DNA of 32,000 nt from Promethearchaeota archaeon (GCA_016933055.1 JAFGBS010000033.1:1-32000), one strand, 5' to 3'; shown: positions 13,087 through 24,933, counted from the stretch's first letter. Translations and numbers: made by a program. The notes: a model not told the origin generated them from the letters alone.

Positions 13087-13542
13087 ATGGCTCTTTCAAC
13101 AAAATCGTTCAATAAAATATTATCAAAAATCATCAAAAGCGAATCTGGAATCAAAAAAGTGCTACTTGTAGATCGAACTGGATTAACTATTGCACATGTC
13201 AGCAAATTTTCTTATTATCCCGTTGATGTGGATGGGATAGGTGCGATTGCAAGTGCAGTTTTCTGTGCATCAGAAGAACAAGGAAGAAACTTAGAACTTG
13301 GAGAGCTGTCTATAGTCACCAGTGAATTCACTTCTGGAAAAATTTTCGCTGCTAGCTGCGGTAAGGGGGTTCTTTGTCTAATTAGCGATCCTGACATAAA
13401 TCTTGGACTCATACGGCTTGTAATGAAACGGTCTGGTGAAGAATTGAAGACTATTCTTGATGAATTCTTATCTGAGGTTGCTGATGAAGATTTAGAAGCG
13501 GGATTGGATCTCAGCGATTTAGACAACATTTCGTCCAACTAA
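13087..13542 (+). CDS. Roadblock/LC7 (MglB/LAMTOR-like) domain protein with acidic tail
   Basis: GIKKVLLVDRTGLTIA...IGAIASAVFCASE..G..LELGEL...EF..GKIF...GVLCLI...NLGLIRL fits the roadblock fold pattern typical of Asgard archaea. Confidence 0.9.
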   Translation: MALSTKSFNKILSKIIKSESGIKKVLLVDRTGLTIAHVSKFSYYPVDVDGIGAIASAVFCASEEQGRNLELGELSIVTSEFTSGKIFAASCGKGVLCLISDPDINLGLIRLVMKRSGEELKTILDEFLSEVADEDLEAGLDLSDLDNISSN

Positions 13543-14217: not shown

Positions 14218-17200
14218 TTGTTCTTAATTTCTAAAGAGACAAACAATTTATCCAATGCAAGGGTGAACAGTCTGGCCGAGACCGATAATTATCCTTTGGT
14301 ATCCATTTATAAAAAACCGCAGTGGTATCCATTCACTTCTTTGAAAACAATTCCTCAAGTGTTTCTACCACACCGAGATCTTTTAGAGCATTTTTTTAAG
14401 GAGATTTCAGACCATGTTTTATCTCATGATAATCTTAATTTGGAAAATCTATATTGGTACTTATTATTGGGTAAATATTTGGGAGTAAATTTACACAAAC
14501 TCCCCATTAAAGATGAAATATACAAATTAACTACGAAATGTGCGGTAGAAACCGAAGATCAATTGGGCTTTCAATTCTTGCCTTTTTCCGATAGTTCTCC
14601 AGATATTTGGTCCACAGATTTTGCATTGGTTATTTTTCATTTACTCGGAAAGTTGGAGGATTTTCTTTACCAAGATTTCGACTTAAATCGAAAATCCAAG
14701 GTATTAAATTTTCTCTTATCATGTAAACGTAATTCTCATTATGTTCATTGTAGATCCAATTGCTCAGTATGTAAAAAAACAAGCGAGGAAAAGACGTTAT
14801 TTCATGTGTTAGATATTTTATTGCTATTAGGTGGAGATGGAATTCATTCCTATCGTTCAGTCATGCTAAATTCGCTGAAATCATTGAAATTAGGAAACAT
14901 ACCGCAAAATGTATTCCGGTTGTTAGATTTAAGATTTTTGGGCTCATATGAAGATGTAACCGACGAACAACTCCAGTATTTTGAATCATTCCAAAAAGAG
15001 GATGGGGGATTTTCTTTTTCCACTAAATCCTCTTCTTCTATTAATGAAACCTTTTGGATAGTCTATCTTTTTGATAATTACCGCTTCATTTACCGTGATT
15101 TTCATCCTGGTAGAGTATATTCATATCTGATAGCACAAATTCAATCCATAGATCCTATCCCGGATGCAAAAAATCCCATAAAACTTATGGAGTTTGCCAA
15201 AGTAACCATCATGTTGACTTTTGTTTGGGAAAACCTTGTAGATGAATTGGAAACCCAAATTTTTACCTGGTTAGATAATCCCAATATTCGTTTTGATATG
15301 GAAAAATTAACTCTTCAAACGGGAATTCAGAATTCAGAATATGAAATTCTATCTTACCTTAATCAAAAATATAAACTCACCTTAAAAATTGTGGATAATG
15401 AATCGCGGTTCGTTCAGTTCCTCAACCAACTCGATCCTTTAGATAAATATTTTGCAAAATTTATTTTCCGAAGAATAGATCGATATTCATCGTTAAATAT
15501 CTCAGAGATTGTATCCCATTATAATAAAAATAAACCAAAATCGGCTCGTGTGAATGAAAAAATTCTCGAGAATCTGTTTAACCGTATGATCCAAGAAGAT
15601 TTTTTCAAAGGAAAATTCATCATACGAAAACGACTATTCCGTAGAACTTACTTGTTTAATCGAGATTCCTCCATTTCTAAAATCATCACTTGTAATAAAC
15701 GGGTAAACTATGAGTCTATTTCTGCAGAAAAACGCAAGCTTAGCGACTTAAAAGATGATATATATAACATGCACCGGGAGATAATGCAATCCTCTGAACT
15801 TATTATGCGTGAAGTGGAGAGTCTTATTTTTGCAGGTGAAATTGAATATGCGGAATTACGTTTAAAAAATAATATCAAAAAAGCACTTTTAGATGCAGAA
15901 TTTTTTAATCAATCGATACATCAGCAACTAGATGAATTTGAATACATTAATGCTCCCAAGGCGGTATCGGCTTGTCTGTATGATTGGATGACCTTATATG
16001 ATAATTTACAATCTCAATACCAGAAAATTAATCTAATTATGCTGGAAAAGATTCACGAGAGTGAAAAATTACGGGATCAGAAGCACCTGATTGATCAATT
16101 GGAAACTCAAATTAAAACCAATATATCCGAATTAGAACTTGCATTTAGTGTGTATCAAGAAAGTTTTCGCTATAATTTAGGTAAAGAATATGAACGTAAT
16201 AACGTAAAACAATTGGAGGATGAACTTCATTCATTTAATGACCGAATCAAGGATTTTGACCATTCAGTGATTGAAGTTTCCCAGCAAATTTCAGTAGAAG
16301 ATCGCAAAGTAAAAATCCGGAGAAAAAAAGTCATAGAAAAATGGGTAGAAGAAAAAGGAATTTTTGATGAATATGTGGCATTTTACTACGAGGGGTTTAA
16401 GATCTGGCATGAAAAAATCTCATATATTGATTCCCAGTTTGATTTATTCAAAAATAAAATAGTACAGATTTCTCAGCAAATTTCAGTTAGTTTACAAGAT
16501 AAAAACTATCGCACTACAAAACATTTACTAAACGTAGAATTTAGCAAATTACTGCATGAATTAGAACAAAAATTTAAGGAATTTATTAGACAAATAGATG
16601 AAATCATTCGCAGTCGGAAAAAGCTCTACCTATTAATCACTACTTTGGAAAAAGAGTGGACCCAACAAAAAACTCAACTCGAGCATTTAATTTCCAAAGA
16701 AAGAGAAAATCAACAACAAATAGTAGAATTGGATAAATATGAAAAATCCCGGGAAGATTTTGTTCAATTAATAACTGAAAAAATCACCTATCTTAACTCT
16801 TCCTTTCAAGGATTTGTGGAACAAATCAATGAACAGCTACAAAATCGGAAGATCCCTCAATATGCTGCAATTGATGAGAATTATAAATTTTTACAAAATC
16901 TTCTCTTACAAAATAAAAAAGAAATCCAACAAATCGGGAATGCGAATTCTAAGAAATTCAAAGATTTTCTGGATAAAGTGGAATCTTCCTTAATATTATG
17001 GAATAGTTTTATTATCTCATTTGAAAAACGTCTAAATGATTTACAAGAGGATATGTTGGATGAGGTAGTTCGTTCTGCACTAGTCCAATATTCAAATGAA
17101 AAATCCACAAATCAAGTTGATCTTATAGAATTAAGCGATTTAACAGGTATATCCGGCAAATCTATTCGAAAGAGAATAGAGAGTATGATATCATTCTCCA

Positions 17201-18720
17201 AAATTTCCGGAGAACTAATCAAAGGTTCAAATTATTTAATAATTCATAATGATGAATGGAGGAAAAACCAACGCTTTAATTTGTTCATATCTGGCGAATT
17301 ACGTGAAATTGATGCATTTACAGAACGTATCGTTCAATTATATAATAATTCTATAGAACATAATTCCATAGATTCTTCTTTTGAAGAATTAAATGGAGTC
17401 ATAGAGAATTTTTACACACATCTGACTCACTCTAAAGAATCTGTTAAAATGAAAGTAAAATCTCTAAACTTAGATATAAAAAATGAGATGTTCGTACAAA
17501 ACTTCACTTCGTTTAAATCTAAGTTAAATGATGCAAAAGAATTAGTACATGACATCCATCTTCGCATAGCTAGTGCAATGAAGAGTTTCAAACTTGTCGA
17601 ACAAACCGTGAAATTCTTACAAGAATTTATTGCATCATGGAACATGAATATAGAAATCCATATGGAACAAAATAAGTCTCAACCCTATGAGAAAAATATC
17701 CATTGGATCGAGACAGAATACCAAAAAATTGAGGATCAAATCAGTATAATCGCTAAAAAGTTTTCTGGAGATATGAACACTATATGGAATAAAATTCCAG
17801 AATCCCAGTCCATTCAAAAACTACTTATTTCCCATTTTGAGGGAAAACTGGGTAACCTAGTCACAGACCAAGAAGAACGACGAGAAGATATTGTGAAACG
17901 ACTATTCACCTATGAAAACCAACGAGTGAAAAAAGAATTAGACGGGAAATTGTTTAGTCACCAAGATATTCTAAATAATCATTTAGGAAGAATCCAATTC
18001 GATATCGAAAACCGAATTGAGATTAACGAATTCAAATCTGCAATGCAAAGACTCCATACTAAATTAAATAAAATCAATGATATCATACGTCATTCTGATA
18101 AATCATTAAAGAAGCAACTTAAGAAAATCACATCGAAATCGAAAACTAAGGTAAATATCCAATTCGTAATGCAGACGTGGAAAAAATTCGTTGATGAATA
18201 TCGAATCGTAGTAAAAGAAAAACAGCTAAATTTAGAACTATTGATTATTCAAAAATACGTTGAAAAAGTAATTCGAGCGTTTAAAGATGAATATATCCCT
18301 CTGAATTATTTATCTAAAGAATTTCGCTTAAAACGGGATATAATTCAAGAACGGTTAATCACTCTTATTGGAGAGAATCGCCTGCCGGGTAAATTGTATC
18401 TTGAATTAATGATATATTATGAGAATCCTGAACCCATCCAGAAGTTGGATCAATCCTCGGTAGATATGATCAAAACCTCCAATGTGCACACCTACTTAAT
18501 AATAAATCGTATCCAACGTTTAGCGAAGCAAATTTATCCTATTTTAATGGTAATTGGGTCACTACTTACTATCACACTAAGTGCATTACGTATCGTGCAA
18601 ACAGCTAAATTAGAATGGTGGGTATTACCCGCAGCCCTTGCTGTATTGTTGTTATTTGGCTTTGTATACATTTTATTAAAACGTAAAGATAAGAAAATAG
18701 TGAATGATCTGGATGAATAA
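14218..18720 (+). CDS. Very large hypothetical protein: prenyltransferase-repeat-like N-domain, winged-helix/PCI-like domains, long helical rods, two C-terminal TM helices
   Basis: Uninterrupted 1500-codon frame. QKEDGGFSF and PDIWSTDFAL repeat-like motifs, heptad-rich helical stretches, YIPLNYLSKEF..KRDIIQERLITLIGENRLPGKL, and a hydrophobic C-terminus. TTG start uncertain. Confidence 0.8.
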   Translation: MFLISKETNNLSNARVNSLAETDNYPLVSIYKKPQWYPFTSLKTIPQVFLPHRDLLEHFFKEISDHVLSHDNLNLENLYWYLLLGKYLGVNLHKLPIKDEIYKLTTKCAVETEDQLGFQFLPFSDSSPDIWSTDFALVIFHLLGKLEDFLYQDFDLNRKSKVLNFLLSCKRNSHYVHCRSNCSVCKKTSEEKTLFHVLDILLLLGGDGIHSYRSVMLNSLKSLKLGNIPQNVFRLLDLRFLGSYEDVTDEQLQYFESFQKEDGGFSFSTKSSSSINETFWIVYLFDNYRFIYRDFHPGRVYSYLIAQIQSIDPIPDAKNPIKLMEFAKVTIMLTFVWENLVDELETQIFTWLDNPNIRFDMEKLTLQTGIQNSEYEILSYLNQKYKLTLKIVDNESRFVQFLNQLDPLDKYFAKFIFRRIDRYSSLNISEIVSHYNKNKPKSARVNEKILENLFNRMIQEDFFKGKFIIRKRLFRRTYLFNRDSSISKIITCNKRVNYESISAEKRKLSDLKDDIYNMHREIMQSSELIMREVESLIFAGEIEYAELRLKNNIKKALLDAEFFNQSIHQQLDEFEYINAPKAVSACLYDWMTLYDNLQSQYQKINLIMLEKIHESEKLRDQKHLIDQLETQIKTNISELELAFSVYQESFRYNLGKEYERNNVKQLEDELHSFNDRIKDFDHSVIEVSQQISVEDRKVKIRRKKVIEKWVEEKGIFDEYVAFYYEGFKIWHEKISYIDSQFDLFKNKIVQISQQISVSLQDKNYRTTKHLLNVEFSKLLHELEQKFKEFIRQIDEIIRSRKKLYLLITTLEKEWTQQKTQLEHLISKERENQQQIVELDKYEKSREDFVQLITEKITYLNSSFQGFVEQINEQLQNRKIPQYAAIDENYKFLQNLLLQNKKEIQQIGNANSKKFKDFLDKVESSLILWNSFIISFEKRLNDLQEDMLDEVVRSALVQYSNEKSTNQVDLIELSDLTGISGKSIRKRIESMISFSKISGELIKGSNYLIIHNDEWRKNQRFNLFISGELREIDAFTERIVQLYNNSIEHNSIDSSFEELNGVIENFYTHLTHSKESVKMKVKSLNLDIKNEMFVQNFTSFKSKLNDAKELVHDIHLRIASAMKSFKLVEQTVKFLQEFIASWNMNIEIHMEQNKSQPYEKNIHWIETEYQKIEDQISIIAKKFSGDMNTIWNKIPESQSIQKLLISHFEGKLGNLVTDQEERREDIVKRLFTYENQRVKKELDGKLFSHQDILNNHLGRIQFDIENRIEINEFKSAMQRLHTKLNKINDIIRHSDKSLKKQLKKITSKSKTKVNIQFVMQTWKKFVDEYRIVVKEKQLNLELLIIQKYVEKVIRAFKDEYIPLNYLSKEFRLKRDIIQERLITLIGENRLPGKLYLELMIYYENPEPIQKLDQSSVDMIKTSNVHTYLIINRIQRLAKQIYPILMVIGSLLTITLSALRIVQTAKLEWWVLPAALAVLLLFGFVYILLKRKDKKIVNDLDE

Positions 18721-18733
18721 GAGCGTGTTCGAT

Positions 18734-18979
18734 TTATTCCTCGCCACCCATGAAGTAATCCTCGAAAGCTCTTCGTTCTTCTTCAGATATGGCTTGTGAG
18801 TGTTTTCTTTCTTCAACTATTGCAGTCTTAGACCGGACACGATCTTTTTCTATTTTACTTTTAATTTTATAATCTGGATTTCCTTCTACTTTGAAAGTTT
18901 TTTTACAGACTCTACAATATAGTTCGTTTGAATTGCGTTTCGGTAATAATATCGATTCGCAATCGGGGCAAAATTGCAT
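18734..18979 (-). CDS. RpoM/TFS-like zinc-ribbon protein, N-terminal ribbon only
   Basis: MQFCPDCESILLP...LYCRVC is the typical N-terminal ribbon of TFS/Rpb9. The second ribbon is absent. Confidence 0.8.
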   Translation of the reverse strand: MQFCPDCESILLPKRNSNELYCRVCKKTFKVEGNPDYKIKSKIEKDRVRSKTAIVEERKHSQAISEEERRAFEDYFMGGEE

Positions 18980-21029: not shown

Positions 21030-22361
21030 TTATGATGATTCGTATAAAATAAAAGAATCTTGCTGATTCTTGAGTAATTTTAATTCTTGGCCGATTTCTG
21101 TTGCACAGCGAATTAAATCAACCTTGGATAATGATTCTGAGACCAATACTATGGAATCCACATCTTTGTGGATGAAAGATAAGCTTTTGATATATATGTT
21201 TAAAACATCAGTTCCAATGATGGTAGCAGTCTCAATCCGATTATTGTGAATTTTTTTGAGATATTCATTTGCTTTATAGTAATATTCCTTCATAATCATT
21301 CCGATTGTGAAGTTATAGTTGGTGGAACAATATTGATTGATAATTGATTGTTCGCGATTTAGGACAAGAGCTATGGTTTTATCAGACGCACCAATGACCC
21401 CTGATAAAATATGCTCTAATTGAATAGATAACGGTGAAACAATCCCAAGGATGTCTTGCATAGCCTTATAAAGAGTTGAGATACGTTCAGATTGAATAGA
21501 AGTAAAGTATACTTGAATATTGAATTGTGATTTAATTTTACCTGCAATCTCTTTGATAATACTCGCTACATGGGTACCTGGTATTAAATCGGATTTATGG
21601 CAAAATGCAAATACTTTACACTTCTCATTGTAGGACTTAGTTATTGCAATAATTCTCTCTAAATTATCTAGGATGATTTCAGGATAATTCCCCCAATATG
21701 GAAAATCAAAATTATAAATTACTACATCGGCAGATTCAAAAGCAATATCTTTTTCGAAACTTTCTTGTGATGATAGATAATGATTTAATTCTTGTCCCGA
21801 GCTATCCGCAATTCCCAGTTCCATATCCAGCCACTGGTATACATAATGAGAAAATCCACGTGTGGGTTCCAAACTGTGTTCCAGAAGTTCTTGGGAGTCT
21901 GCTCCCTCGAAAAATACTTTTTTTATGCTGGTTTTTCCACTTGAAGGAGGACCTATGATTAAGATCTTTTTCGTTAATCTTTTTTGATAAAAACGTTTTG
22001 CAAATTTGGTAAAATCTTTAATTCGATCTTCACGTTTTCCCGCTTCGAATTCCGATATGTGGTCCATCAATAATTTGCGTAATTGATACAAATTGACGTA
22101 TTTTTCTTCGTGTTGTTCAAGTACGAGCAAGATCATTTCATGTCCATATTGCGGAATATTCCGTTTGTTACAATAACTAAAAATGATATAATTCTTGTAC
22201 TTAATTTCCAATAGTTCTGGTTCCATTTCTGCACTAAATTGATGGGTCATGAGAATTTTGTTAATGATCTCATGCGAAATCAAAAAGTTGTGAGGATAGG
22301 TAGCATCTACAACACAACCAATACTATCATCCCAACCAACTAATAACAGACCCATAACCAT
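21030..22361 (-). CDS. Rag/Gtr-like small GTPase with N-terminal longin/uDENN-like and C-terminal Roadblock-like domains
   Basis: G1 GPPSSGKTS, G2 EPTRG, G3 DSSGQ, G4 HKSD and G5 TSI (HKxD/TSI typify the Rag family). N-terminal GLLLVGWDDSIG....TYP. About 130-aa C-terminal alpha/beta domain. Confidence 0.8.
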   Translation of the reverse strand: MVMGLLLVGWDDSIGCVVDATYPHNFLISHEIINKILMTHQFSAEMEPELLEIKYKNYIIFSYCNKRNIPQYGHEMILLVLEQHEEKYVNLYQLRKLLMDHISEFEAGKREDRIKDFTKFAKRFYQKRLTKKILIIGPPSSGKTSIKKVFFEGADSQELLEHSLEPTRGFSHYVYQWLDMELGIADSSGQELNHYLSSQESFEKDIAFESADVVIYNFDFPYWGNYPEIILDNLERIIAITKSYNEKCKVFAFCHKSDLIPGTHVASIIKEIAGKIKSQFNIQVYFTSIQSERISTLYKAMQDILGIVSPLSIQLEHILSGVIGASDKTIALVLNREQSIINQYCSTNYNFTIGMIMKEYYYKANEYLKKIHNNRIETATIIGTDVLNIYIKSLSFIHKDVDSIVLVSESLSKVDLIRCATEIGQELKLLKNQQDSFILYESS

Positions 22362-22538: not shown

Positions 22539-23162
22539 TTATGAAGTCGGTACAAGTCGCTTCATCATATTGATCTTCATTTCAATAAATAATCCTCTTA
22601 CTCCTTCTGCAGATTTTGCAGATACTAAATGCACTTTGGAATCATGTCGTTGCTCAAGGGATGCAATTTGTTCTTTAAGATTAGATTCCTCTGAATCTAT
22701 CAAATCACTTTTATTACCTACTAATAAAAAGTCACTGTGTGGAGAGAAGGTTTTAAGATCATTCAACCACCCACTGATATCGTAGGGAGGTTTATTTAAG
22801 TCAAACACTGTCAAAGCCATAAAAGCGTGAGACATGTAATAATTCCGAATTTTTCTAAAAAAAGGTTGTCCCGCCAGATCCCACAGATATATCTTTGTAT
22901 CCTCATCAAATTGGTCATTTAACAGCGTAAATTCTTCATAGGTCAGATGCAAATTCTCAAGTATGTAGTTATCTTTTCCTTGTAAATCCACCATCTCGTA
23001 ATTCTCATCAATCTTCAAAGAAGTTGTGGTAAAATCTGCTCCGATTGTTGGGATATATTGTCCAGCAAAGGTGTTTTTTGTGTACCGCAAAATGATTGAG
23101 GTTTTTCCTACACTTAAATTTCCGATTACGATACATTTCAACATTATATTTGGATTGATCAT
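22539..23162 (-). CDS. Rab-like small GTPase with inter-switch insertion
   Basis: KCIVIGNLSVGKTS, YIPTIGADF, WDLAGQ, VGNKSD, VSAK. No C-terminal cysteine. Confidence 0.9.
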   Translation of the reverse strand: MINPNIMLKCIVIGNLSVGKTSIILRYTKNTFAGQYIPTIGADFTTTSLKIDENYEMVDLQGKDNYILENLHLTYEEFTLLNDQFDEDTKIYLWDLAGQPFFRKIRNYYMSHAFMALTVFDLNKPPYDISGWLNDLKTFSPHSDFLLVGNKSDLIDSEESNLKEQIASLEQRHDSKVHLVSAKSAEGVRGLFIEMKINMMKRLVPTS

Positions 23163-23174
23163 TTTATTTCACCA

Positions 23175-24686
23175 TTATACCATAGGAATTAAGGTAATTT
23201 TCGCAAGAGGCTGATCTTCATCCTCCATTTTCATCCACCATATTCCGGAATAGGGTTTAATACCGTAGAGGAAGATTACGTTATTTTTATAGATCATTTT
23301 AATATGGGTATTAAAAAAATATGAGATATTTTCGATAAACCTTTGTTGTGGAGTACTTATCGAGGTGTCATTTCCTGTTGTTAATCGATTCACGATTGCA
23401 ATTTCAATTGAATTATAATTTCGAACGAATTTAAGATGATTGTAAAATTCTGAGGATAAATCTGAGAACGATCTGTCCCTTAAATTTATGAAATCGTATC
23501 CCATTACTGATATTATAGGACTATAAGAAGAAGATTCTGCAAGTTCCACATAGGTAGCAGTAAACTGTCGTTTGAATTCCATCGGCTCAAAAGGAACTAC
23601 ATAAGGAAGTATATCGTATTTTTTATTGAGTTTCTCGTTCCCTACTGATTCAACTAAATATCGAATATATGCTCGAATACGATCCATTGGTAAATAGACG
23701 AAGATTTTATTTTTATCCACGAATCGAGAATTTATTCCTTCGGCAGTATAGATGATTGTTCCTATATTCTGAGTTACAAAATTACAGATTAAAGGCACTA
23801 TGATATGCGAAAATGCAGTTAGAGGAACATCCGATTCAATTTCCCATAAATTCAACGATTTTGCTTTTAAACCCCCGTGATACAGTTTATCTAGCTCTGG
23901 ATTTCCTGTAGAATATACACTATGGTTTCCAATCGGTTGAATTGCATCCCATTTTTTTACTTTTGAAGTTTCAAGAGCATTATTGTTATTAATTTCATAG
24001 TAGGGGGAGCAATACATAAACTCGTTATTGTTTAAAGTATAATTATAACGTTTTTGACGCCGTTCTATTCCTCGAATTTTATTTATCTCGATCTGCCGAT
24101 GTGTCCTTCCATCTAATTCAGAATCAGTCAGAGTCACAATTCCATCAAAAGTGTAATCTAGAAAACTGCTTATAGTGCGTTCACTTACCACAATCAATTT
24201 TAGATTCAGTTGTCGAACAACCTCAGTAAGTACGGTTTCCCATTCTTGTGATACATTTGCACATGTACCAATAATCGCGTCCCATGAATCAATAACAACA
24301 ATAGCATTTTCATATTCACTGATCTTGTCATACAAAATTTTCAAGAATTCGGGTGCATCTTTGAATTTTATTGTTCGAAGAAGATGTGTTTTTAACTCAT
24401 TGGGATTATCTACAGGAGGAAAATAAGTTCTTGTCGCATCTAATATGTTATTTTCTTTTAACACTTCTCGGATCCAAGGAAATTGGGCATACAAAGACTG
24501 CGGTGCAACGCGCGTAGATATATATATTGCTTCCATATTGCTGCGGAGGATGGATAAGATCGAAAGAGCGAGAGTAGTTTTCCCCGTTCCTGCTTCTCCC
24601 TTGATAAGTAAAGAATATCCTATTTCCCGCTGGGTTAAGGATTCATAGATTTCGATTGGGATATTATTTACTTTGTTTTCTGACAT
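23175..24686 (-). CDS. RecA-superfamily GvpD/KaiC-like ATPase; second ATPase domain degenerate
   Basis: SLLIKGEAGTGKTTLAL, YISTRV, VVIDSW, LDGRTHRQIEINKIRG, then STGNPELDKLYHGG without a second Walker A. Likely start is MSENK at 24686 rather than 24836. Confidence 0.8.
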   Translation of the reverse strand: MSENKVNNIPIEIYESLTQREIGYSLLIKGEAGTGKTTLALSILSILRSNMEAIYISTRVAPQSLYAQFPWIREVLKENNILDATRTYFPPVDNPNELKTHLLRTIKFKDAPEFLKILYDKISEYENAIVVIDSWDAIIGTCANVSQEWETVLTEVVRQLNLKLIVVSERTISSFLDYTFDGIVTLTDSELDGRTHRQIEINKIRGIERRQKRYNYTLNNNEFMYCSPYYEINNNNALETSKVKKWDAIQPIGNHSVYSTGNPELDKLYHGGLKAKSLNLWEIESDVPLTAFSHIIVPLICNFVTQNIGTIIYTAEGINSRFVDKNKIFVYLPMDRIRAYIRYLVESVGNEKLNKKYDILPYVVPFEPMEFKRQFTATYVELAESSSYSPIISVMGYDFINLRDRSFSDLSSEFYNHLKFVRNYNSIEIAIVNRLTTGNDTSISTPQQRFIENISYFFNTHIKMIYKNNVIFLYGIKPYSGIWWMKMEDEDQPLAKITLIPMV

Positions 24687-24933
24687 AGATAGTTCTTCCG
24701 CGTGAATTGCAGATTTTCTTAGGAAATAGATGAAAATGGAAATTCTATTGGGAAGAATCCATCTCAACCTAAATAGTTCTTCTTTCAGAAAAGCGGCAGA
24801 GAATAATTCTAAGAAAGATCGTTGAAAAGGTACCATTTACATGCCATATTGATATTACTGACGTATTATATTAACTTAAAAATATCGTTGGAAAGTTTCC
24901 AGAAGTTCAACTATATCATGAGTTTGATGCATA

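Follow-up and report, generated by a model that had tools for sequence, protein, structure and literature searches.

What kind of protein is encoded by a single open reading frame (ORF) of 1500 codons in the genome of a Promethearchaeota archaeon, and what might it do in the cell? The ORF lies in a stretch of 32,000 nucleotides (nt; GCA_016933055.1 JAFGBS010000033.1:1-32000, hereafter the window), for which a sequence-only reading had proposed a membrane-anchored scaffold with a prenyltransferase-like toroid, repeated PCI-like winged helices and helical rods. Our analyses point, with moderate confidence, to a tail-anchored, cytoplasm-facing rod protein that is specific to Lokiarchaeia-type Asgard archaea and would serve as a membrane-anchored spacer, tether or membrane-skeleton element. 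Each of its modules belongs to a known fold class, their combination is undescribed in any structure or paper that we found, and Pfam offers no model for it beyond the toroid.

Gene, family and distribution

The ORF runs from position 14218 to 18720 on the plus strand, as the sequence-only reading had it, and has zero internal stops from its TTG codon onwards. The window is AT-rich (GC ∼0.33), and its composition is unbroken at the gene. Public collections hold the protein both from the GTG codon at 14263 (P0002, 1485 amino acids (aa)) and from the TTG codon (1500 aa). The orthologues carry just 4–9 residues ahead of a conserved 'AYPYITKFKKEPF' block; because these short N-termini are better matched by the GTG codon, we take 14263 as the likely start. 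Residue numbers below follow P0002, and 15 has to be added for the TTG version.

A word-indexed search returned 28 full-length homologues, nearly all of 1460–1485 aa, which are 24–69% identical to the query at 98% coverage. They come from metagenome-assembled genomes of Asgard archaea; those that bear a name are annotated as hypothetical or as 'prenyltransferase/squalene oxidase repeat-containing'. Residues 335–1485, used in an exhaustive profile search, gave 114 cluster representatives, of which ∼30 are full-length (1390–1500 aa) and the others are fragments on short contigs; no convincing longer fusion was found in this search. Likewise, a search for the N-terminal part (hereafter the head) as a stand-alone protein or in other fusions gave only fragments of close relatives. 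The remotest full-length members, labelled Helarchaeota, are ∼17% identical and of the same length. One orthologue lies in the closed 4.36-Mb genome of Candidatus Harpocratesius repetitus, and the RefSeq copy from this genus is named 'PCI domain-containing protein'. Across the family, database labels are limited to 'hypothetical', 'prenyltransferase repeat-containing' and 'PCI domain-containing'.

Of 301 genomes sampled from the phylum, 74 contain the C-terminal 1000 residues, almost always as one copy per genome; all come from two sister families (four of six genomes in the family of the window organism and 69 of 69 in its sister family), and a search of 226 other genomes of the phylum did not find them. 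The gene is present in 62 of the 64 near-complete genomes of the class, and a scan of species representatives returned 121 loci, every one of them from Promethearchaeota. Full-length, single-copy and collinear orthologues across genomes show that the gene is real, vertically inherited and under strong length constraint, not a fusion produced by misassembly as the sequence-only reading had allowed for. The toroid and winged helices on which that reading also hinged are both present in the models described below.

Some genomes contain a shorter second relative of 1230–1250 aa (at G144:C2:173188-173400 and G258:C1:46164-46316, with ORFs of 1251 aa). Two further proteins, P0124 (1230 aa, labelled Helarchaeota) and P0126 (1231 aa), are similarly short and match the rod region more weakly; P0126 also matches the Pfam families Prenyltrans and PCI.

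Predicted domain architecture

The head is predicted to contain an alpha/alpha toroid of the protein prenyltransferase beta type, and several independent comparisons bear out this part of the sequence-only reading. The Pfam family Prenyltrans (PF00432) matches the window protein at 27.2 bits (cut-off 26.5) and 24 of 26 family members scanned, with remote members down to 1e-20. Against PDB sequences, the family profile finds the RabGGTase beta subunit at E 4e-11, and no cyclase is matched. An AlphaFold2 model of residues 1–490, calculated from an alignment of 25 sequences, has a predicted local distance difference test score (pLDDT) of 84 and a predicted template modelling score (pTM) of 0.80, with the toroid and the adjoining winged helices predicted as one compact unit. 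In a Foldseek search with this model, the beta subunits of geranylgeranyltransferases (GGTase-II/III and GGTase-I) and farnesyltransferase (FTase) rank above terpene cyclases. VIA-align superposes the model on GGTase-II/III beta with Z 23 and a root-mean-square deviation (rmsd) of 2.7 Å over 259 of ∼300 residues, collinear over residues 34–324.

The toroid thus shares with protein prenyltransferase beta subunits both its fold of six helical hairpins and the recognisable repeat motifs 'Q..dGGF' and 'PDI.ST..AL'. It differs from them in that (i) the conserved Asp/Cys/His zinc ligands are missing, (ii) a His/Cys cluster is present in another repeat and (iii) it is one part of a longer chain, with 1150 further residues and a membrane anchor. 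For the first point we used rat RabGGT beta, whose zinc ligands we take to be D238, C240 and H290; a printed alignment sets its numbering ('WWVL' at 243 and H290 in 'DPFHT'). The family loop 'GGF-(14 or fewer residues)-TFW' shares its register with 'GGF...D-x-C-Y-S-W-W'. Mapped in this way across 46 sequences, i.e. by motif register and collinear structural alignment and not by residue-level superposition, the equivalent of D238 is a variable residue, that of C240 is N, D or S, and that of H290 is a variable K, Q, D or T. This indicates that the catalytic zinc ligands of prenyltransferases are lost in the toroid. The prenyltransferase alpha-subunit repeat PPTA (PF01239) has no match at E <= 0.01 in the genome from which the window comes (91% complete). 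Since the zinc site appears lost and an alpha-subunit partner was not found in the genome, the toroid is most likely a non-catalytic module that binds a hydrophobic ligand or peptide, and probably not a prenyltransferase.

The His/Cys cluster stands where other toroid repeats have their 'GGF...' loop. Residues H162, C163 and C167 vary little or not at all in 33–46 sequences, and zinc-ribbon families of Pfam match at the cluster position in distant members; the cluster is gone in three members (P0048, P0053 and P0054). The alignment suggests that it may form the toroid's own metal site, which, judged from prenyltransferase structures, would lie on the open rim and would probably have a structural role.

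The same genome encodes a second Prenyltrans protein, a stand-alone protein of 377 aa (G000 contig C27, L005:1384-2517, minus strand) that is only remotely related to the window toroid (hhalign 43%). Its gene adjoins a 259-aa ORF (L005:2607-3386, minus strand) with an actin-fold piece (positions 276–355 of Pfam Actin) and double zinc ribbons.

Four winged-helix (WH) units follow along the chain, and the sequence-only reading had placed them to within ∼40 nt of their positions in the models (15280-15696 for WH1 and WH2 together; WH3 and WH4 as in Table 1). The tandem pair that it saw at 15240-15660 holds for WH2, which is a complete winged helix with the topology H-S-H-H-S-S; WH1, by contrast, is a small, truncated winged-helix-like unit, predicted as strand-helix-helix-strand-helix after a long helix (residues 305–337). 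In hhalign comparisons, WH3 and WH4 are clearly related (97%, E 1e-10), WH2 aligns with WH3 at 68% (E 5e-5), and WH1 has a weak link to WH3 (43%). WH2 carries a net charge of +11 with a K/R-rich wing that is conserved in the family; its possible ligands are nucleic acid, an acidic lipid or an acidic partner. Since WH3 and WH4 are charge-neutral, protein binding is favoured over DNA binding for these two.

The assignment of these units to the PCI type is supported by profile matches in distant orthologues and by models. Pfam PCI exceeds its cut-off of 22 bits in distant orthologues, with 38.7 bits at the WH3 position of P0070 and 29 bits at the WH4 position of P0079. In the window protein, the match at WH3 lies below the cut-off (15.7 bits), and 18 of the 26 members match at E <= 0.1; a further sub-threshold match falls at the WH2 position of P0126 (19.9 bits, E 8.5e-4). 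The WH3 profile finds the winged helix of cullin-2 (E 0.006) and DDRGK1 (E 0.1–0.13) in the PDB, and also eIF3c and Rpn6, and WH3 superposes on CSN2 with an rmsd of 2.0–2.1 Å over 63 residues (VIA-align). The last helical bundle together with WH4 superposes on PCI modules of Rpn and CSN subunits and eIF3e at 3.4–3.7 Å over 102–107 residues. VIA-align also gives Z 8.4–8.6 to UFL1/DDRGK1, and bacterial winged helix-turn-helix (wHTH) regulators fit WH3 about as well (Z 8.2–8.7). No Pfam match to DDRGK or E3_UFM1_ligase occurs in the window protein, profile searches against PDB sequences with WH4 and with the WH1/WH2 segment gave nothing significant, and an ESM Atlas feature search with WH1/WH2 gave only sub-threshold matches (0.83). 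The kinship with ESCRT-II that the sequence-only reading had considered gained no support, EAP30 and Vps25 being unmatched by Pfam in the window protein and in the 26 members.

As in PCI domains (PF01399) of the proteasome lid, COP9 signalosome and eIF3, to which the winged helices of cullins and UFL1/DDRGK1 are related, a winged helix is packed on a preceding helical bundle in the AlphaFold2 models and VIA-align alignments. In contrast to PCI subunits, three or four winged helices occur per chain, split by spectrin-like repeats and not placed after a TPR-like solenoid. The multi-subunit PCI horseshoe, which assembles through the WH beta-sheets, is a property of those complexes; the present protein is known from the sequence and models of one chain.

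Other proteins in the genome match PCI and are candidate partners. One of them, of 784 aa (G000 contig C17, L008:370-2724, plus strand), matches Pfam DDRGK, E3_UFM1_ligase, PCI (49.7 bits) and the C-terminal domain of VPS28. This protein, in which a winged-helix array is joined to ESCRT-I-type modules, could be a PCI partner of the one studied here.

Two long helical regions, 465 and 343 aa in length, separate the winged helices. The sequence-only reading had found both and had described them as amphipathic rods; their extent stands, and the models resolve them not into plain coiled coils but into seven tandem three-helix bundles. The AlphaFold2 model of residues 478–1485 (46 sequences) has a pLDDT of 82 (85–94 in rod 1) and a pTM of 0.35, as expected of an elongated chain. 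Its helices alternate between ∼70 and ∼30 residues (41-31-72-30-65-36-74-31-41, WH, 36-31-62-34-72-36-41, WH, two hydrophobic helices), as in spectrin-type repeats, where adjoining three-helix bundles share a continuous helix at each junction and the end of one repeat runs on into the start of the next; four such repeats make up rod 1 and three rod 2. Foldseek against AFDB/Swiss-Prot placed spectrin alpha and beta, nesprin-3 and desmoplakin at the top (E 1e-5, with ∼900 residues aligned) and eIF3a/c/e next. For the PDB entries that Foldseek listed, VIA-align gave Z 13.2 for spectrin repeats (SR) 7-8 of plectin, Z 12.9 for beta2-spectrin R14-16 (311/321 residues), Z 11.8 for plectin SR7-9 on rod 2 (model residues 525–854) and Z 10–11 for the alpha-actinin rod. 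In a scan of 48,161 chains that was independent of Foldseek, plectin and spectrin repeats again came top. Plectin SR3-4 aligned over 205/205 residues at Z 13.1. Single units also fit generic three-helix bundles at ∼2 Å over ∼110 residues.

The seven units of ∼110 residues are mutually homologous, most pairs aligning in register over 90–115 columns (hhalign); the best pairs are SR4-SR7 (97%, E 1e-11), SR2-SR4 and SR3-SR7 (both 96%). Repeats 2–4 of rod 1 align as a block with rod 2 over 295 columns (98.4%, E 9e-15). Because this alignment is accompanied by that of WH3 with WH4, we conclude that the C-terminal 800 residues arose by duplication of a module of three repeats and one winged helix. 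Regarding spectrin itself, Pfam Spectrin (PF00435) is unmatched in the window protein (E <= 1) and in the 26 members (E <= 0.1), and Z values up to ∼13 are common for helical repeats; for these two reasons we propose a spectrin-like arrangement of the modelled rods and claim no homology to spectrin.

The only two segments above 1.6 in a hydropathy scan of the whole protein are residues 1424–1446 and 1450–1473, so the two transmembrane (TM) helices with which the sequence-only reading ended the protein are upheld. Both are helical in the AlphaFold2 model and conserved in the alignment; they are joined by a loop of ∼3–6 residues and followed by a basic 12-residue tail ('KRKDKK...'). No N-terminal signal sequence was found in the protein. 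Together with the positive-inside rule, this suggests an N-in/C-in topology in which the 1420 N-terminal residues and the tail would be cytoplasmic and the hairpin would act as a tail anchor. Conservation is highest in WH4 and the juxtamembrane segment, and also in the first repeat after each winged helix, as expected for interaction sites.

Table 1. Features of the gene, in the order of the chain, and of the genes that flank it (window coordinates; residues numbered from the GTG start)
Feature	Position	Strand	Residues or remark	Evidence
Whole gene	14263..18720	+	1485 aa from GTG 14263; frame open from TTG 14218 (1500 aa)	
Alpha/alpha toroid, protein prenyltransferase beta-like	14365..15273	+	35-337	Pfam PF00432, PDB profile, AlphaFold2, Foldseek, VIA-align
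H162-C163-x3-4-C167-x2-C170 cluster	14746..14772	+	candidate metal (Zn) site	alignment, Pfam
WH1, small truncated winged-helix-like unit	15280..15426	+	340-388	AlphaFold2
WH2, complete winged helix, long K/R-rich beta-hairpin wing	15427..15696	+	389-478	AlphaFold2, hhalign, Pfam
Rod 1, four spectrin-like three-helix-bundle repeats	15709..17103	+	483-947	AlphaFold2, structure matches, hhalign
WH3, PCI-like winged helix	17104..17250	+	948-996	Pfam, PDB profile, VIA-align
Rod 2, three spectrin-like repeats	17251..18279	+	997-1339; duplicate of rod 1 repeats 2-4	
WH4, PCI-like winged helix beside membrane	18280..18432	+	1340-1390	hhalign, Pfam, VIA-align
Juxtamembrane segment 'YYENPE...LD..ELEVIK..N'	18433..18528	+	1391-1422	alignment, conservation profile
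C-terminal hairpin, two predicted TM helices	18532..18681	+	1424-1446, 1450-1473	hydropathy, AlphaFold2, alignment
Roadblock/LC7 gene	13087-13542		flanks locus	
Gtr1/RagA-like gene	21030-22361		flanks locus	
Ras-like gene	22539-23162		flanks locus	
KaiC/GvpD-like gene	23175-24836		flanks locus	

Possible role at the membrane

This anatomy is consistent with a tether or scaffold that carries docking domains. In such an arrangement, the two-helix C-terminal hairpin would fix the protein in the cell membrane and, moving outward from it, WH4, three repeats, WH3, four repeats and the compact head (two winged helices, one of them strongly basic, and the toroid) would follow. Spectrin-type repeats measure ∼5 nm each; seven of them, if the rod is extended, would hold the head ∼35–40 nm from the membrane. 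There the toroid would bind a hydrophobic ligand or peptide, and its own His/Cys metal cluster would stabilise or equip it. Partner proteins would probably dock, or copies of the protein self-associate, through the PCI-type winged helices. Docking modules would thus be placed at the membrane, at mid-rod and at the head, a logic comparable to that of nesprins, spectrin and bacterial EzrA.

The likeness to these systems has limits. Spectrin, plectin and other plakins, alpha-actinin and nesprins consist of the same tandem three-helix bundles, of ∼106 residues in the spectrin repeat and ∼110 here, joined by continuous helices, but the present protein has its conserved aromatic residue at the start of the third helix and not in helix A, lacks CH and KASH domains, and has a rod that is broken up by winged helices. 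It resembles nesprins in that a rod ends in a C-terminal membrane anchor with a functional head at the far end; however, nesprin/KASH proteins have a single C-terminal TM helix and a luminal KASH peptide of ∼30 residues, where the present protein has two TM helices and the 12-residue basic tail. EzrA, the 'bacterial spectrin', is a prokaryotic, membrane-anchored cytoplasmic protein with linear triple-helical bundle repeats (Cleverley et al. 2014, PMC4243239), and so shares both the anchor and the type of repeat. It is anchored N-terminally, though, and has five repeats and no toroid or winged helix. No EzrA match of Pfam occurs in the window protein or the 26 members, a single-sequence search of the PDB with the whole protein gave no match, and among the open-access papers that were searched we found none on spectrin-like repeats or such an architecture in Asgard archaea.

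Several points weigh against a spacer or tether. All folds are predictions, and with a pTM of 0.35 for the rods their extended shape is assumed. The Z values of 12–13 lie within the range that common helical arrangements reach, and Pfam Spectrin is silent as described above. WH2 is basic enough for nucleic-acid binding, and the strictly conserved His/Cys cluster, if it lies on the open rim, could mean that the head is an enzyme. No conserved operon exists, and the neighbours differ between the two families, so that the surroundings of the gene offer no hint at its function.

Four alternatives carry differing weight. The protein might be a membrane-skeleton or cytoskeleton linker in the strict spectrin/nesprin sense, with rods that oligomerise laterally or antiparallel under the membrane and a head or winged helices that bind Asgard actin or other filaments and shape the protrusions that characterise these archaea. 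Seven spectrin-like repeats with a membrane anchor would suit such a linker, as would the presence among the Foldseek matches of nesprin-3, which combines spectrin repeats with a membrane anchor at its C-terminus, and the universal, single-copy occurrence of the gene in its clade; EzrA, which regulates a cytoskeletal filament, offers a precedent among prokaryotes (PMC4243239). However, Pfam scans of the protein and the 26 members show no actin-binding (CH-type) or other filament-binding domain, and the similarity to spectrin is structural only; we consider this alternative rather unlikely. We give slightly less weight still to a catalytic head, i.e. an active isoprenoid or lipid enzyme of a single chain (either a thiol-alkylating transferase or a cyclase) whose metal site would be the H-C-x3-4-C-x2-C cluster, relocated to the toroid mouth, and which the rod would position with respect to the membrane or its substrates. 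In FTase and RabGGTase structures the zinc ligands sit at the transition from GGF loop to inner helix, and the cluster occupies the same type of loop; few residues of the protein are as conserved as H162, C163 and C167, and by sequence the toroid resembles beta subunits of protein prenyltransferases more than it does terpene cyclases. An enzyme is nonetheless hard to reconcile with the absence of all three canonical zinc ligands and of an alpha subunit in the genome, or with the loss of the cluster in the three members named above. Furthermore, the basic residues of 'GGF-x-G-R-x-x-K', the diphosphate-binding loop in FTase, are not conserved, and four ligands inside nine residues resemble a closed structural knuckle and not an open catalytic site.

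A nucleic-acid tether or membrane-tethered regulator, in which the winged helices and above all WH2 hold DNA or RNA at the membrane, is improbable. Its attraction lies in the charge and K/R-rich wing of WH2, in the superposition of WH3 on bacterial wHTH transcription factors and in weak matches of several HTH families of Pfam to P0076, but WH3 and WH4 are neutral, their best sequence matches are of the protein-binding PCI/cullin/DDRGK1 type, and it is not obvious what spectrin-like rods and a toroid would contribute. That the ORF is an artefact of assembly or annotation (i.e. several fused genes) or an extracellular surface protein can be set aside almost entirely: the start codon is indeed non-ATG and uncertain, yet dozens of independent assemblies, the closed genome among them, have an uninterrupted frame of 1460–1500 aa, the orthologues are full-length and collinear, there is no signal peptide, and PCI, prenyltransferase beta and zinc-cluster domains are cytoplasmic types.

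In this protein, universal and single-copy in a large Lokiarchaeia clade, three modules are joined that are known chiefly from the cell biology of eukaryotes. No closer relatives of eukaryotes than the Asgard archaea are known. If the protein really forms a ∼40-nm rod on the inner face of the membrane, it should be visible by cryo-electron tomography and would provide a handle on the membrane-skeleton or tethering functions of these cells. The degenerate toroid also bears on the origin of the eukaryotic protein-prenylation machinery. A bolder version, which we regard as doubtful, is that Lokiarchaeia possess a genuine spectrin-type membrane skeleton or tether built of seven homologous three-helix repeats, together with two more modules otherwise typical of eukaryotes, PCI winged helices and a prenyltransferase-beta toroid. 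It would be an archaeal forerunner, or an independent invention, of nesprin/spectrin-like linkers between membrane and cytoskeleton, and its head, with a relocated metal site, would be a relic of, or sister to, the ancestor of eukaryotic prenyltransferase beta subunits.

Gene neighbourhood

The window and a 69%-identical relative have several neighbours in common (i.e. Roadblock, FMN reductase, GDPD, TBP, RagA-like, Ras-like and KaiC-like genes). The Roadblock/RagA/Ras/KaiC-type set follows the gene in that relative (L003) but is not seen in genomes further away. In the sister family (loci L012-L091; also, e.g., L001 5553-14588) the synteny is another one and equally fixed, with a Peptidase_C13-like gene and a small Ig-like membrane glycoprotein upstream and a convergent gene for a 717-aa DEAD-box helicase downstream (in 55–59 of 80 loci); none of these three adjoins the gene in the window. 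No same-strand neighbour conserved across both families was found, and conserved operon partners are therefore rejected, the shared neighbourhood being common only to the 69%-identical relative. Since the neighbourhood differs between the families, the Roadblock, Rag and Ras genes of the window cannot be tied to the protein, and the gene appears to stand alone. Converging on its 3' end is an 81-aa ORF (window 18734-18979, minus strand) with an RPB9-type zinc ribbon (Pfam E 5e-6); the 69%-identical relative also has an 81-aa ORF in this place (L003 4772-5017).

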